Shown here: positions 142 through 4,793 of the stretch, piece by piece
Layout of the letters: every line of letters begins with the position of its first letter
Numbering within the stretch: position 1 is the first letter of the stretch
Virus record (IMG/VR): IMGVR_UViG_3300029577_000119
DNA length: 4,793 nucleotides
Source of the DNA: a virus
Lineage: Duplodnaviria > Heunggongvirae > Uroviricota > Caudoviricetes
Direction: 5' to 3' (one strand)
The notes under the pieces: model-generated
Told to the model about the DNA's origin: nothing
The model's database searches: none
What the model saw: only the letters and a program-made list of their open reading frames with translations
Made by a program: the position numbers and the translations under genes

Positions 142-329
142 TGAAAGTAAAAATAACTGCTTCTAATACCAGTTTTGTTAGTGTTGGTGATATTACAGAA
201 GTAATAACAAACCATGATGGAACCCAAGTTATGTGGTCTGATTTTTGTAAAAGATATGAGCGAGTTAGTTGGTGTAAACTCGTATGGGGCGTCGAATACG
301 AAGAATTACCTGAAATGCATGACGAATAA
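141..329 (+). CDS. hypothetical small protein (62 aa), AT-rich
   Basis: ORF-track ORF with ATG at 141 overlapping the upstream stop (TAATG); GGGGA 6-10 nt upstream could serve as SD. Visibly AT-rich (first 60 nt about 30% G+C by hand count) compared with downstream genes. Product not recognised. Confidence 0.55.
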   Translation: MKVKITASNTSFVSVGDITEVITNHDGTQVMWSDFCKRYERVSWCKLVWGVEYEELPEMHDE

Positions 330-334
330 GCACT

Positions 335-362
335 GTGTATTCATTCCAACGAGTGAATACAC
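335..362 (+). repeat. perfect inverted repeat GTGTATTCA-N10-TGAATACAC (hairpin or dimeric protein binding site)
   Basis: Read directly: arms 335-343 and 354-362 are exact reverse complements, 10-nt spacer ttccaacgag. Begins 6 nt after the stop of the 62-aa ORF. No downstream T-tract, so not a canonical intrinsic terminator. Confidence 0.5.
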
Positions 363-422
363 GGAGCAATGTCGCTCGTAACTAAACAGGAGCCGACTTG
401 TTCTGATTATTGGAAATCTTCT

Positions 423-450
423 TTGCCCTCCAGTGTGAGGGCAATTTTTT
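423..450 (+). terminator. rho-independent terminator, + strand orientation
   Basis: TTGCCCTC (423-430) / loop cagtgt / GAGGGCAA (437-444), perfect 8-bp GC-rich stem followed immediately by TTTTTT (445-450). On the opposite strand the hairpin is not followed by a T-run. Confidence 0.7.
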
Positions 451-462
451 GACGGAGGATAT

Positions 463-1431
463 ATGAGTGAAGTAACAGATTTAGTTGTTATTGAAAAAGC
501 AAATGCAATGACTGTATTTCAGTCTGCCGACCAGATTGAAGAAATCCTTCAAAAGGTTGAACGTGAAGTTATGTCCTTTGTGCCTGATATCACAACGGCA
601 AAGGGCAGAAAGGAGATCGCTTCTCTGGCGTATAAAGTTGCGCAGACGAAAACATATCTCGATGGTCTTGGAAAAGACCTTGTTGCTGAACTGAAGGAAA
701 TTCCAAAGCTAATTGATGCCAACCGCAAGACAGTGCGTGATCGCCTTGATGAGCTGAAATCCAAGGCACGCCAGCCTCTTACTGATTATGAGGAGGAACA
801 GGCACGGATTAAAGCCGAAGAAGAAGCTAAGGCAGCAGCTGAAGCTCTCGCAAAGCAAATTGAGTCTGACCATGAAATAGCTATTTTGATGGATCGCGAA
901 TTTGACCGCCAAAGAGAAGAGGCAAGACTCAAAGCGGAGCAGGAAAAGCGAGAGCATGAAGAACGCTTAAAAAGAGAAGCTGAAGAGAAAGCCAGAGCAG
1001 AAGCCGAAGCAAAGGCAAAAGCCGAAATTGAAGCAGCAGCAAGGCGAGAAGCAGAAGCTAAGGCCGCAGCGGAACGTGCAGAGCGTGAACGCATTGAAGC
1101 CGAGCAACGAGCACAGCGCGAAGCAAAAGAGGCAGCAGAACGAGCTGAAAGAGAAAAGCAGGCGGCAATTGAAGCAGAACGCCGAAAAGCACAGGAGGAG
1201 GCTGAACGAATCCGGCGCGAGGCTGAAGCAAAAGAGCAAGCCAGAATAGCAGAAGAAAAAAGAATCAAGGACGAAGAAGAGCGTAGAGCAAAGGATAAAG
1301 CTCACCGGAAAGAAGTAAATAACAAAATACTTGCTGACCTTATCAAGGTTGGCGCATCAGAAGATGTTGCTAAAAATATCATAACAGCCATCGTAAAAGG
1401 CGAAGTATTCGCAACAAAAATAACCTACTAA
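463..1431 (+). CDS. hypothetical protein with a long E/R/K/A-rich predicted single alpha-helix or coiled-coil segment (TolA-domain-II-like composition); function unknown
   Basis: 322-aa ORF; GGAGG at 454-458 upstream of ATG 463. Residues ~108-284 (nt ~784-1314) are almost exclusively E, A, K, R, Q (e.g. REAEEKARAEAEAKAKAEIEAAARREAEAKAAAERAERERIEAEQRAQREAKEAAERAEREKQAAIEAERRKAQEEAERIRREAEAKEQ), flanked by a ~107-aa N-terminal and ~38-aa C-terminal region of ordinary composition. No N-terminal hydrophobic segment. The many minus-strand ORFs over this span are shadows of the repetitive GAA/GCA/AAA codons. Confidence 0.8.
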   Translation: MSEVTDLVVIEKANAMTVFQSADQIEEILQKVEREVMSFVPDITTAKGRKEIASLAYKVAQTKTYLDGLGKDLVAELKEIPKLIDANRKTVRDRLDELKSKARQPLTDYEEEQARIKAEEEAKAAAEALAKQIESDHEIAILMDREFDRQREEARLKAEQEKREHEERLKREAEEKARAEAEAKAKAEIEAAARREAEAKAAAERAERERIEAEQRAQREAKEAAERAEREKQAAIEAERRKAQEEAERIRREAEAKEQARIAEEKRIKDEEERRAKDKAHRKEVNNKILADLIKVGASEDVAKNIITAIVKGEVFATKITY

Positions 1432-1454
1432 TAAACCAACATAAGGAACCACCC

Positions 1455-1586
1455 ATGATTTACGCAATCGCGGGAGGCGCTCGCATGGGTGCCTTCCAAC
1501 TAAATGAATCTTTACTTGAACGAATCACCCGTAAATTACGTGACGGATGGAAAAGAGTTGAGGTCTTATTATGCGCAATGAAATAG
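1455..1586 (+). CDS. cIII: cIII-like protein (FtsH inhibitor / lysogeny regulator homolog), 43 aa
   Basis: Not in ORF track (too short). ATG 1455 preceded by AAGGA at 1444-1448. Translation MIYAIAGGARMGAFQLNESLLERITRKLRDGWKRVEVLLCAMK* matches, from memory, the lambda CIII N-terminus and core amphipathic region (ESLLERITRKLRDGWKR). Shorter than lambda CIII (54 aa) at the C-terminus. Confidence 0.8.
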   Translation: MIYAIAGGARMGAFQLNESLLERITRKLRDGWKRVEVLLCAMK

Positions 1587-1723
1587 CCATCAATCACCAG
1601 ATGCTTCGTGCTGCACAGAACAAAGCAGTAATAGCCAGATTTATTGGTGATTCCAAAATGTGGTTTGAAGCAAATAAAGCGATGAAATCAGCTATCAACC
1701 TTCCGTGGTATCGCAGGAAATGA
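1571..1723 (+). CDS. kil: Kil-like small protein (putative host cell-division inhibitor), 50 aa
   Basis: ATG 1571 with GAGGT 8-12 nt upstream; overlaps the 3' end of cIII by 16 nt in another frame. Translation MRNEIAINHQMLRAAQNKAVIARFIGDSKMWFEANKAMKSAINLPWYRRK*. The IARFIGDSKM motif resembles my recollection of lambda Kil (..ATFIGDEKM..), and the position directly after cIII matches kil in lambda and P22. Identity is from memory and position only. Confidence 0.55.
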   Translation: MRNEIAINHQMLRAAQNKAVIARFIGDSKMWFEANKAMKSAINLPWYRRK

Positions 1724-1878
1724 GTTTTACAGATAACTGGTCAGACGAAGAATTCATTCGTCAGATGAAAGAATTAATCGGTAACGAAGGAGATATTCAT
1801 GTCACTTGCAACCACAGTGAAGGAGAGCAAGTTACAGAGACGCATGTACACGCAGAAAGCTCTCTGGTATCGCCATAA
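1720..1878 (+). CDS. hypothetical small acidic protein (52 aa), candidate 1 for the kil-erf slot
   Basis: ATG 1720 overlaps kil stop (ATGA at 1720-1723). Translation MSFTDNWSDEEFIRQMKELIGNEGDIHVTCNHSEGEQVTETHVHAESSLVSP*. No well-spaced SD. Overlaps the alternative ORF 1799..1969 in a different frame. Confidence 0.35.
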   Translation: MSFTDNWSDEEFIRQMKELIGNEGDIHVTCNHSEGEQVTETHVHAESSLVSP

Positions 1879-1969
1879 TGGCGATCGCGAAGGAATGCGG
1901 GTATGCCTTAATTTGTCCAGAGTCGAAGTTTTAAATCAGCGTTATTTCCTTGGGGAATGTCCATTCTGA
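1799..1969 (+). CDS. hypothetical small basic protein (56 aa), candidate 2 for the kil-erf slot (arf position in P22)
   Basis: ATG 1799 preceded by consensus SD AAGGAG (1786-1791) at 7-nt spacing. Translation MSLATTVKESKLQRRMYTQKALWYRHNGDREGMRVCLNLSRVEVLNQRYFLGECPF*. Ends 10 nt before the erf ATG. Not in ORF track (under 60 aa). Confidence 0.45.
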   Translation: MSLATTVKESKLQRRMYTQKALWYRHNGDREGMRVCLNLSRVEVLNQRYFLGECPF

Positions 1970-1979
1970 GAACAAACAT

Positions 1980-2585
1980 ATGAGCAAAGAATTTTACGCA
2001 AGACTGGCAGCTATTCAGGAGAATCTGAACGCGCCAAAAAATCAGTACAACTCATTCGGTAAATATAAATACAGAAGCTGCGAAGATATTCTTGAAGGCG
2101 TTAAGCCGTTACTGAATGGTCTGTTTTTATCAATCAGCGATGAAGTTGTGTTGATTGGTGATCGGTATTACGTGAAAGCCACGGCAACTATTACCGATGG
2201 CGAAAACAGTCATACGGCAACCGCTCTTGCACGAGAGGAAGAAAGCAAGAAAGGAATGGATTCTGCACAAGTTACGGGAGCTACAAGCTCTTATGCACGC
2301 AAGTATTGCCTCAATGGTTTGTTCGGCATTGATGATGCGAAAGATGCAGATACAGACGAGCATAAACATCAGCAGAACGCAGCAGCAAAGCAATCAAAAC
2401 CATCACCTACACCTGAACAGGTTCTAAAAGCATTCACTGACGCAGCAATGCAGAAAAACACCGTAGAAGAGCTTAAACAGGCGTTCGCCAAAGCGTGGAA
2501 GATGCTCGAAGGCACACCGGAGCAGCACAAAGCGCAGGACGTTTACAACATCAGACGAGACGAATTAGAAGGAGCTGCTGCTTAA
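1980..2585 (+). CDS. erf: Erf-family single-strand annealing protein (essential recombination function)
   Basis: ORF-track ORF 1950..2585 begins at a TTG; the ATG at 1980 gives MSKEFYARLAAIQENLNAPKNQYNSFGKYKYRSCEDILEGVKPLL.., which closely matches my recollection of the phage P22 Erf N-terminus. 201 aa. Followed immediately by ssb with TAATG overlap. Confidence 0.85.
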   Translation: MSKEFYARLAAIQENLNAPKNQYNSFGKYKYRSCEDILEGVKPLLNGLFLSISDEVVLIGDRYYVKATATITDGENSHTATALAREEESKKGMDSAQVTGATSSYARKYCLNGLFGIDDAKDADTDEHKHQQNAAAKQSKPSPTPEQVLKAFTDAAMQKNTVEELKQAFAKAWKMLEGTPEQHKAQDVYNIRRDELEGAAA

Positions 2586-2969
2586 TGGCACATTCGATTA
2601 CTGTAAGACTAAACAAGCCCGCAAGAGAGTTTCAGGCCGNNNNNNNNNNATATCGGATTCAACATCCGTGCTGGCGTTCAGTATTACGATCGCCAGACAA
2701 AAAAGAAAGAATGGACAAACTACAGCGCCGTTGTATTTGCCAAGCCGGGAGCGCAAGCGGATTACTACCGTAGTGTTCTTGTTGAAGGTGGAATTGTGGA
2801 AATTACCGGAGAAAACATCAGGGTTGATGTTTATCAGGGGCAAAATGGTCAATCAATCACTCTTGAATTACTGAATGCAAAGATTGGATTTGCAGCTTCA
2901 GGAAATGGCCAGCAGCAAAGTAGCAATCATCAAAATCATCCTGAATACGACGATTCAATTCCCTTCTAG
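2585..2969 (+). CDS. ssb: phage single-stranded DNA-binding protein (SSB), interrupted by an assembly gap
   Basis: ATG 2585 overlaps erf stop (TAATG). N-terminal MAHSITVRLNKPAREFQA runs into the N-run. After the gap, the frame with codons at 2652.. reads IGFNIRAGVQYYDRQTKKKEWTNYSAVVFAKPGAQADYYRSVLVEGGIVEITGENIRVDVYQGQNGQSITLELLNAKIGFAASGNGQQQSSNHQNHPEYDDSIPF*, ending in the acidic DD(S)IPF tail diagnostic of bacterial/phage SSB. The two halves are in different frames relative to window coordinates, so the 10 Ns do not represent the true gap length. Confidence 0.7.
2640..2649. other. run of 10 N (assembly gap or masked bases)
   Basis: Ten consecutive n characters in the sequence, inside the ssb reading frame. 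Confidence 0.95.
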
Positions 2970-2992
2970 ATTAGCAAAATAAGGCTCCCATT

Positions 2993-3289
2993 ATGCCAGC
3001 GCCTCTGTATGGTGCGGATGACCCGCGCAACTGCTCCGGTAGCTCCAAGGCGGAGGTGCTGGAAAATATCAAAAATAATTTCGACACGTTTATCGATCTT
3101 CCACCAGAAACAAAAGCAGAACGGATGTACCGACGCGATATACAACTCGCGTTAAAAGATGAGAAGGACCGAACAAACGAAACAGCAATGAGACCGTTGC
3201 GAAAAGAGACAATAGACAAATTCCCTGAATATATCGACCCGCGCCTGCGTAATTACCGCTCACGCTATGGCGCTATCAGTAATGACTGA
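2993..3289 (+). CDS. hypothetical protein, 98 aa; possibly Abc2-like anti-RecBCD protein (unverified)
   Basis: ORF-track ORF; ATG 2993 with AAGG 8 nt upstream. Translation [98 protein letters not shown]. The Abc2 suggestion rests only on size (P22 Abc2 is about this length) and position distal to the recombinase in the pL operon; sequence not confirmed from memory. Confidence 0.6.
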
Positions 3290-3299
3290 GGAATTTACC

Positions 3300-3464
3300 A
3301 TGAGAGGACTTGCATACAATCCCGGCATTCTTCCGGCAGAAATGATTATTCGCCAACGCGTAAAGCCAATGCCATCGAGAGAGAAATTGCTTAAGAGAAA
3401 GAGTTTCGGTTCTGTTAATGACAACAAATATCTGAATGCAATGTTGCGGAGTGGGAAGAAATGA
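3300..3464 (+). CDS. hypothetical small basic protein (54 aa)
   Basis: ORF-track ORF 3267..3464; I prefer the in-frame ATG at 3300, which has GAGGA at 3288-3292 (7-nt spacing) and begins after the 98-aa ORF stop (3287-3289). Translation [54 protein letters not shown]. Stop overlaps the next ATG (ATGA 3461-3464). Confidence 0.5.
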
Positions 3465-4042
3465 AACAAATGTCACTAATTAAGATGGATGGTTTTCTGA
3501 AAGGTAAATGCATCCCATGTGATTTAAAGGTTAACGAAACAAACGCTGAATATCTGGTGCGTAAGTTCGGTGAACTTGAATCAAAACTAGAAACGGCGTT
3601 GCGGGAGTGTCGTTCTGCTGGAATCACGATTGATAACCTTGAGGCCAAGTGCGCGGCGCTGGCTGTGGAGAATGCGTGGCTGAATAAATTTATCGTACAG
3701 AGTTGCTACGTGTTTGACGGCGAGCAGGGTGAACTATCTGATGCGTATATCTGCGCAATAGACGGAAGGATGCCGCAAACCCAAGTCACCGACGCTTTTT
3801 GGGATGAAGTGAAGACTGAAGCACGCAAGGAAGGCGCTTACTTTGTGGCGAACAGAATGCTGGCTGCCTGGGATGCTGGTTTTATTGATGATACTGCGAA
3901 GAACGCAGCGGATATTGCCAGGATGATTCTTACCTCTACTGAGTTTATGGCTAATGCGCCGGAAGGCGATTTCGATCGCTCGTTCGCTGATGGTGTACTC
4001 GAAGACATCGCCGCCCAGATTCGCAAGGGGGACGCGCAATGA
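3461..4042 (+). CDS. hypothetical acidic protein, 193 aa (phage accessory 'ea-region' type gene)
   Basis: ORF-track ORF; ATG 3461 overlaps upstream stop (ATGA). Contains a CxxC pair near the N-terminus (CIPCD), a predicted helical segment ([40 protein letters not shown]) and an acidic C-terminal half. Not recognised. Confidence 0.75.
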
Positions 4043-4581
4043 GCAACATCGACAAACAGGCGCTGCGTGAAATCGCAGCGGCAGCAGTTGGCGCACATGA
4101 GCGCCTTAGTGTTATGCCGCCTGATGACATTTTCGATATCTCACTGGCAGAAGGAACTCAGCTTGATGCAGATATCACTGCCTTGAACGCGCTGAACTCC
4201 GCAGCAAACCCCACTACCGTGCTGGCGCTGCTGGCATCGCTGGAAGCCGCAGAGAAGCGCATTGCAGAACTGGAAGCGCGTGCATTCAATCCTGCAATTC
4301 TGGATGTGATAGCAGAGCGCCAGCGGCAACAATCGGTTGAGGGGTGGATGCCAGAGCATGATGACGAACACTGCAACGGGGAACTGGCAATGGCGGCGGT
4401 TTGTTACATAAACGAAACAGGAACTGTTAACCGCAATGGTGGCAAGCCGTGGGGGTGGCCTTGGGATACTTCATGGTGGAAGCCAAATGCCCGCCGTCTC
4501 AACCTGGTAAAAGCAGGGGCTTTAATTCTGGCTGAAATCGAACGCATAGACCGCGCCGCTGGCATCGGTAAGGGGGAGTGA
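4039..4581 (+). CDS. hypothetical protein, 180 aa; possibly Ead/Ea22-like family (unverified), with a Trp-rich C-terminal motif
   Basis: ORF-track ORF; ATG 4039 overlaps upstream stop (ATGA 4039-4042), AAGGGGGA upstream. The segment TTVLALLASLEAAEKRIAELEARA resembles a motif I associate with Ead/Ea22-like prophage proteins. C-terminal part carries HDDEHCNGELAMAAVCY and GGKPWGWPWDTSWWKP. Family assignment is from memory only. Confidence 0.75.
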   Translation: MSNIDKQALREIAAAAVGAHERLSVMPPDDIFDISLAEGTQLDADITALNALNSAANPTTVLALLASLEAAEKRIAELEARAFNPAILDVIAERQRQQSVEGWMPEHDDEHCNGELAMAAVCYINETGTVNRNGGKPWGWPWDTSWWKPNARRLNLVKAGALILAEIERIDRAAGIGKGE

Positions 4582-4793
4582 TGCTTCAACATCAAATGCA
4601 GCCAACATTTAACACCTGCATGGCTACCTGTGTAGCAATGGTTGCTGGTCAGCCTGTTGACGAGGTGGTTGCTCGCTGGCACCAGGCTTTTCACGACAAA
4701 ACAGACTGGCTGGATGATGCCCTGGATTATTACAAAATCCCTTACTTCTACGGCAGCCAAAGAAAATGTGAACTGCTTTATGGGTTTATTTAT
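4581..4793 (+). CDS. 5' part of a CDS continuing past the window; N-terminus has a papain-like/C39-like cysteine peptidase motif (tentative)
   Basis: ATG 4581 overlaps upstream stop (TGATG 4579-4583) and is preceded by strong SD AAGGGGGAG (4570-4578). Open to the window end: MLQHQMQPTFNTCMATCVAMVAGQPVDEVVARWHQAFHDKTDWLDDALDYYKIPYFYGSQRKCELLYGFIY.. The Q-x6-C-x3-C-x-AM arrangement resembles the Gln (oxyanion) and catalytic Cys signature of C39-type peptidases (Q..C-G-x-A-C-L-x-M). The catalytic His/Asp would lie beyond the window. Confidence 0.6.
   Translation, partial: MLQHQMQPTFNTCMATCVAMVAGQPVDEVVARWHQAFHDKTDWLDDALDYYKIPYFYGSQRKCELLYGFIY

Follow-up and report, generated by a model that had tools for sequence, protein, structure and literature searches.

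A predicted stand-alone C39-like cysteine peptidase gene in the early-left operon of a lambdoid phage

Known C39-like peptidases and the phage protein

C39 peptidase domains are found in ABC transporters such as ComA, LahT, PCAT1, and CvaB (PF03412; MEROPS C39). Those of the MEROPS PCAT type are N-terminal domains of ABC exporters and have a double-glycine leader substrate nearby. Peptidases of MEROPS C39 cut their substrates after Gly-Gly or after Gly-Ala/Ser. There are also stand-alone Peptidase_C39_2 proteins, for example 3erv of B. anthracis, which are of larger size, have additional decorations, and are linked to transporters. Two other C39-like modules of about 143 residues act in the cytoplasm of a target cell. 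These are Cpe1, which belongs to a T6SS (PMC12136450), and StbD-CT, which belongs to a CDI system (bioRxiv 10.64898/2026.05.07.723447). In both cases, GyrB and ParE are cut within LHAGGKF, directly after its Gly-Gly (PMC12136450; bioRxiv 10.64898/2026.05.07.723447). StbD-CT, an experimentally validated C39 toxin, has Gln177, Cys183, Cys187, His258, and Asp275; Cys187 is non-catalytic, yet it affects auto-processing (bioRxiv 10.64898/2026.05.07.723447).

The DNA analyzed here, referred to as the window, is a stretch of 4,793 nucleotides from a virus of the Caudoviricetes (IMG/VR record IMGVR_UViG_3300029577_000119). Its last open reading frame is partial. This frame is likely, with a probability of about 0.8, to encode the N-terminal half of a cytoplasmic, stand-alone cysteine peptidase, about 143 residues long, that has a papain-like fold and is closest to the C39 double-glycine domains.

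The phage protein differs from the transporter domains in that it stands alone, with no transmembrane or ATPase domain, and is phage-encoded and cytoplasmic. No transporter or leader-peptide gene is present near the phage gene. Two motifs, VPSLN before the His and DPxxGRxGxxYY, are specific to the phage family. Neither the exporter fusion nor the nearby double-glycine leader of the PCAT type was found, and nearly all of the 150 listed representatives of the family are 115-190 aa in length (the longest has 264 aa). The size, decorations, and transporter association of the C39_2 proteins are likewise absent from the family. StbD-CT and the phage family both have the spacing Q-6-C-4-C, and the distances from Cys to His (75 in StbD-CT and 72 in the family) and from His to Asp (17 and 16) are similar. 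The C-x3-C pair is common to the phage family, StbD-CT (Cys183/Cys187), and Cpe1 (CGAAC). Unlike Cpe1 and StbD-CT, the phage family has no PAAR, Rhs, or CdiA carrier, entry domain, or immunity gene. No carrier domain was found in the 150 listed representatives, and there is no conserved downstream gene.

The open reading frame and its surroundings

The window is the early-left (PL) operon of a lambdoid/P22-like phage. Positions 323-4029 are about 95% identical to Sf101, while mEp043, HK633, and CUS-3 match discontinuous stretches reaching 4244-4277. The gene order is a TolA-like charged protein, cIII, kil, erf, HK97 gp40-like, abc2, DUF2737, two ead/Ea22-like genes, and the partial open reading frame. 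The latter belongs to the accessory 'ea' region, which separates the recombination genes from xis/int. In lambda, the 'ea' region is transcribed as delayed-early. The PL accessory block opens with a 322-aa open reading frame (463-1431) that encodes an extremely E/A/K/R-rich, long charged helix, and its relatives are annotated as 'TolA' or 'Sf6 gene 33 protein' in related phages. An assembly gap of 10 N (2641-2650) lies in the frame 3' of erf, and open reading frame calls there are unreliable. The two Ea22-like open reading frames (3461-4042 and 4039-4581) overlap by ATGA. The first corresponds to positions 2-197 and the second to positions 200-376 of phrog_14548, which has 378 positions. From these matches, they seem to be two parts of one protein, either split here or fused elsewhere. 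Many PHROGs contain the C-terminal domain of the second (residues ~75-175), for which there is no Pfam model.

The features at the end of the window are given below.

4039..4581, plus strand: ead/Ea22-like gene, 180 aa (Pfam Ead_Ea22, E 4e-17), not a conserved partner
4570..4578, plus strand: Shine-Dalgarno-like AAGGGGGAG, read from the sequence, just 5' of the ATG
4581..4793, plus strand: partial peptidase open reading frame, codons 1-71 of about 143, from its translation, its PHROG 4049 match, and its pattern of codon differences
4599..4601, plus strand: codon CAG of Gln7, the predicted oxyanion-hole residue at Cys-6, invariant in 110 members and aligned with LahT Q21
4617..4619, plus strand: codon TGC of Cys13, the predicted catalytic nucleophile, invariant, aligned with LahT C27, and starting helix 13-22
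4629..4631, plus strand: codon TGT of Cys17, a second Cys at +4 (C-x3-C), kept in at least 90% of members

The stop-free frame at 4581-4793 on the plus strand translates to MLQHQMQPTFNTCMATCVAMVAGQPVDEVVARWHQAFHDKTDWLDDALDYYKIPYFYGSQRKCELLYGFIY and runs past the end of the window. A preliminary description of this DNA had stated as much, and, going by orthologues and by the continuation of a near-identical allele, the gene would have about 143 codons. The peptidase ATG (4581-4583) overlaps the TGA (4579-4581) of the Ea22-like open reading frame, forming TGATG at 4579-4583. Together with the Shine-Dalgarno-like sequence, this overlap forms a layout typical of translational coupling to the upstream gene. 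The preliminary description also reported a Gln upstream of the Cys, which is correct, with six residues between them, where the frame has five (Gln7-x5-Cys13). Its C-x-A-C-x-AM motif is present in a slightly different form, C-x-A-x-C-x-A-M (C13 M A T C17 V A M). The pattern Q-x5-C occurs within the first 40 residues in 158 of 173 proteins (the close homologues and 150 listed representatives, fragments included). Because of this, and because Gln7 and Cys13 are invariant in the 110-member alignment, the motif is not a chance match.

Positions 4039-4793 of the window were compared with an E. coli ABWA45 prophage (L001:4640-5394), in which the orthologue is annotated as a 143-aa hypothetical protein (WP_000939115.1). 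Over the 213 nt of the peptidase frame there are 33 differences, 26 at third codon positions. The codon changes are 24 synonymous and three non-synonymous, which points to purifying selection on the peptidase frame. The partial open reading frame at 4581-4793 is a genuine gene under selection. In the upstream Ea22-like gene, 538 of 540 nt are identical. Since the Ea22-like gene differs at only 2 of 540 nt and the peptidase gene at 33 of 213, a sharp mosaic recombination junction lies at about 4581, coinciding with the gene start. ABWA45 has the same gene pair in its nin region, following ren and an HNH gene, and not in the PL 'ea' region. Copies that are 91% identical were found in 6 of 5,426 complete E. 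coli genomes by megablast. No copy was found by megablast of the phage collection, and an exact 43-mer from the window end had no match in the viral and genome contig collections.

The second half of the protein can be read from relatives. Full-length orthologues are 141-146 aa in length. One protein (P0003) agrees with window residues 14-71 at every position, the allele-specific A31, A36, and C63 among them. Its contig (L084, a Logan assembly) matches window positions 4613-4793 at 99.4%, with one mismatch in 181 nt. Beyond the window, the contig continues as ...FLTVPSLNIQGGLHQILMSLTAERGIEVFDPVMGRPGAKYYVYGEAQNDAQFGVISWCVDLSVPVVQQKGED-stop, and this same-allele continuation passes through '...GGLHQILMSLTAERGIEVFDPVMGR...' to its stop codon. 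A catalytic His and Asp/Asn would be expected in this part of an active enzyme, and both are there, as His85 and Asp101, in the full-length orthologues and in the 99.4%-identical continuation. It is therefore very probable that the product of the window allele has 143 aa and includes His85 and Asp101; the window itself holds residues 1-71 only, and these two residues are read from the near-identical allele and not from the source contig.

The L084 copy (Logan SRR21171025 contig, 1-2353) has unrelated sequence in place of its first ~11 codons, including Gln7. There is no in-frame start before Met14, and the gene directly 5' of this copy encodes a CI-like S24 repressor. The copy has probably been truncated or is a chimera of the assembly.

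The neighbors of the gene are variable. Among close orthologues, the upstream gene is Ea22-like, an HNH endonuclease, a 725-aa protein, or a gene of no assigned family, and the downstream gene varies likewise. The 725-aa protein has an apparent N-terminal C5 DNA-methyltransferase-like motif. In many temperate phages, the gene is found in a nin-type region, between the replication genes and NinB/NinG. Neighborhood analysis with trimmed open reading frame starts found no conserved partner gene across the family, only lineage-specific contexts. It had been proposed that the peptidase processes a partner from a coupled accessory operon. That proposal is not supported: even close orthologues have different neighbors, and none of these is a conserved partner.

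An unannotated protein of 154-180 aa is encoded one or two genes 3' of the peptidase in seven loci (L016:3290-3832, L017:5420-5962, L028:5668-6132, and four others). It was considered as an Ntn/proteasome-type hydrolase and rejected; its N-terminus, M..T(I/V)..DG..AADR, is superficially alike and it has no Pfam match.

Family membership, active site, and predicted fold

The window fragment matches phrog_4049 with an E of 3.6e-23 (profile positions 2-74), and a full-length orthologue matches with an E of 6.9e-52 (profile positions 2-144 of 145). This significant full-length profile match places the window protein in PHROG 4049, which is annotated as 'unknown function' in PHROGs. All of the close homologues come from Enterobacterales and are annotated as 'hypothetical'. 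When 1.84 billion representative proteins were searched with a profile, 713 clusters scored E<=1e-3 and 361 scored E<=1e-10, so that the family comprises at least 713 clusters at 50% identity. By tblastn, the family is present in 193 phage records. The carriers include Kuttervirus and other Ackermannviridae, a 145-kb Vequintavirinae phage, and similar ~145-kb phages of Klebsiella, Cronobacter, and Erwinia. Others are 9g/JenK1-type phages (Nonagvirus/Seuratvirus), VP2-like Vibrio phages, Pseudomonas phages, and lambdoid prophages.

Nearly all of the copies listed are annotated as 'hypothetical'. One GenBank homologue is labeled 'peptidase C39 family protein', and a table in one paper labels PHROG 4049 as C39-type. 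The C39 likeness is therefore already noted in automated annotation.

Some members carry other labels or additional sequence. A member in Escherichia phage CSP1C (PQ202980.1, 51938-52348) is annotated as 'T3SS chaperone', a label that may have been wrongly transferred, on the basis of structure, from YopQ (PDB 8brf), a papain-fold neighbor of the family. Members P0080 and P0050 have C-terminal extensions with CxxC and weak, sub-threshold zinc-ribbon matches. In members P0077, P0125, and P0159, 80-115 unrelated residues extend the protein at its N-terminus, which in P0159 is MazG-like in look. The extensions of these five may be true fusions or gene-calling artefacts. They were considered as a functional clue and set aside, being weak zinc-ribbon-like matches or N-termini of no assigned family.

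The active site was explored in an alignment of 110 diverse members, in which the mean column identity is 25%. Only Gln7, Cys13, His85, Asp101, and Pro102 are invariant. Cys17, Ala19, Met20, Val75, Ser77, Asn79, and Tyr112 are conserved in at least 90% of the same members. An oxyanion Gln with a Cys-His-Asp triad is the pattern expected of an active papain-like peptidase, and this agrees with the residues of clan CA (a Cys-His-Asp/Asn triad plus an oxyanion Gln), all of which the family possesses.

The AF2 model has a pLDDT of 95.5 and a pTM of 0.89, with a helix at 13-22 and strands at 84-92 and 96-100. In this model, Cys13 is at the N-terminus of the helix, His85 is at the start of a strand, and Asp101 follows the next strand. 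The predicted arrangement is that of a papain-like (clan CA) fold, alpha+beta with the Cys at a helix N-terminus and the His on a strand of the opposing sheet. The structural neighbors of this model are led by the ComA peptidase domain (score 9.6), PCAT1 (9.3), and LahT (9.2). These are followed by the PeiR endoisopeptidase (8.9), the B. anthracis C39-like 3erv (8.7), the StbD-CT C39 toxin (8.1), YopQ (7.9), and Josephins (about 7). A Gsp amidase and NlpC/P60 enzymes are among the weak Foldseek matches. YopQ (8brf) was rejected as the top relative; it ranked first with a model of pLDDT 80 and tenth with the model of pLDDT 95.5, and it is a fold neighbor only. A literature search on YopQ added nothing.

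Profile comparisons also point to Peptidase C39. In a Pfam scan of the 110 members at E<=0.1, 29 match PF03412 Peptidase_C39 (best E 2.4e-6). No unrelated Pfam family is matched by more than two members, and the minor matches include the papain-like C58 and Phytochelatin. Two members that were checked singly scored 18.7 and 15.5 bits on PF03412, which is under the 22-bit gathering threshold. The window fragment and two full-length orthologues had no match to PF03412 even at E<=10, and Pfam/NCBIfam scans of the fragment and the full-length orthologues gave a sole match, RhaT, that is spurious. The Peptidase_C39_2 profile (PF13529), which the preliminary description had named alongside Peptidase_C39, matched no member in the 110-member scan. 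Alignment of the family with a LahT-type profile, built from 30 true C39 domains, by hhalign gave a probability of 86.9% and an E of 4.1e-6 over 97 columns. In this alignment, Q7/C13/H85/D101 fall on the invariant Q21/C27/H101/D117 of the LahT family. HMMER alignments to PDB 6mpz are individually non-significant and have the same register. Homology to PF03412 is thus found at the profile level, with the catalytic residues in register. Searches of PDB sequences with the 17- and 110-sequence profiles found nothing significant (best relevant E 0.88-1.5), and matches to dystrophin and arabinanase were rejected as noise.

The papain-like, C39-type active site that had been suspected from the first 71 codons is supported by the invariant Q7/C13/H85/D101, by the hhalign match to LahT, and by the neighbors ComA, PCAT1, and LahT. 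Peptidase_C39 is likewise the one family that recurs among the members. From its sequence and model, the protein would best be filed in a divergent C39-like family (PHROG 4049) that resembles C39 in fold, catalytic residues, and profile, and that lacks the transporter fusion; the window fragment, the two full-length orthologues, and the two members checked singly fall short of the Pfam threshold.

Possible activities and targets

If the protein is a peptidase, Cys13 would be activated by His85, which would itself be oriented by Asp101. Cys13 would attack a peptide (or isopeptide) bond and Gln7 would stabilize the oxyanion. To judge from C39 enzymes, cleavage would probably take place after small residues of the Gly-Gly type at P2-P1. 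The target would most likely be a specific host protein in the cytoplasm of the infected cell, for takeover or counter-defense, and not a phage-encoded partner. This is suggested because there is no signal peptide, transporter or carrier domain, or conserved neighbor, and because the unrelated phages that carry the gene share only Gram-negative hosts.

One possible target is suggested by the Ackermannviridae. In Salmonella phage Maynard and six IMG/VR loci, the family gene is present between the genes for the large (T4 gp39-like) and medium (gp52-like) subunits of topoisomerase II. The junctions abut or overlap, and Pfam DNA_topoisoIV was confirmed.

4071-7757 of Maynard KF669654.1 (L085): topoisomerase context, also in L019-L022, L031, and L071

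The large subunit of these phages has LYAGSNF where E. coli GyrB has LHAGGKF, and the Gly-Gly-Lys site is absent. The E. coli GyrB fragment in that alignment agrees with the motif in the Cpe1 and StbD-CT papers. The phage enzyme could thus be proposed to cleave host GyrB/ParE in the ATP-lid, between LHAGG and KF, as Cpe1 and StbD-CT do, and to shut down DNA topology control. The gene position, the altered site in the phage subunit, and the common C-x3-C all favor this proposal, as does the fact that both of the characterized cytosol-acting, non-transporter C39-like peptidases cut GyrB/ParE after Gly-Gly. The proposal is nonetheless unlikely. The topoisomerase linkage is found in one phage lineage only and may have arisen just once. 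Lambdoid phages depend on host gyrase to replicate. Those like the one in the window encode no topoisomerase, and cleavage of GyrB would be self-harming. No immunity-like neighbor was found. A specific kinship with the Cpe1-type toxins was also rejected, since hhalign gave 81% over only 20 columns with a small Cpe1-type alignment, as opposed to the 97 columns with the LahT-type domains, and the family is no closer to the former than to the latter. The topoisomerase context is compatible with a topoisomerase-directed role, but it argues little for the lambdoid phage of the window. The wider idea would make the family a 'host-topoisomerase killer' that acts on GyrB/ParE between LHAGG and KF. Phages with LYAGSNF in a T4-type topoisomerase II of their own would then be intrinsically resistant, and the lambdoid target would be modified, timed, or a different Gly-Gly. 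This idea is also unlikely.

A papain-like fold does not always indicate a peptidase. Papain-fold proteins with an intact Q-C-H can have other chemistries, which counts against the peptidase reading. One is the BtrH acyltransferase, and a C39-like archaeal protein is reported to have glycosidase activity (PMC13642728). Phytochelatin synthase is another papain-fold enzyme with a different chemistry. The phage protein could therefore be an amidase or an acyltransferase, or could be transglutaminase-like or glycosidase-like, and could act on a small molecule or on the cell envelope. The Gsp amidase and NlpC/P60 matches are in keeping with this, as is the one member that matches the Pfam Phytochelatin model. 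However, the top sequence and structure matches are consistently double-glycine peptidase domains, the oxyanion Gln at Cys-6 is a peptidase configuration, and the gene lacks a signal peptide and belongs to the early region and not to a lysis cassette. A non-endopeptidase is quite unlikely on these grounds.

A deconjugating isopeptidase (DUB-like) would be another type of counter-defense protein, one that removes the ubiquitin-like modifiers of Bil or type II CBASS. C39 enzymes cleave after Gly-Gly, and this is the same C-terminal motif that Ub and Ubl proteins have. The gene occurs in phage accessory regions, where counter-defense genes are typically found, and Hor et al. have speculated that Bil is countered by DUB domains of phages. 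Against this, DUB-type structural neighbors score below the C39 domains, and no co-occurrence or experimental link was found. PADLOC defense models gave no matches, and literature searches for a characterized phage C39-like protease or a counter-defense role found none. A deconjugase appears very unlikely.

It is highly improbable that the protein is a catalytically dead C39-like domain that only binds, in the manner of the HlyB C39-like domain or YopQ. Inactive domains of the HlyB CLD type have lost the catalytic Cys, whereas Cys13 is invariant in the phage family. That Gln, Cys, His, and Asp (with Pro102) are the sole invariants in 110 divergent sequences is a signature of retained catalysis. 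Finally, a spurious open reading frame or a chance motif in non-coding DNA, for which it can be said that the fragment alone matches no Pfam family, is ruled out for practical purposes by the PHROG match (E 3.6e-23), the hundreds of homologues, and the strong third-position substitution bias, and the confident predicted fold also speaks against it.

The C39-like cysteine peptidase is thus the preferred reading. To our knowledge, early phage proteases aimed at host proteins are rare and poorly understood. The identity of the substrate would define a new mechanism of host takeover or counter-defense. The family would also supply a protease that is compact, at 143 aa, and probably has sequence specificity. 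A concrete hypothesis comes from the topoisomerase II operons and from the relatives that cleave GyrB/ParE.
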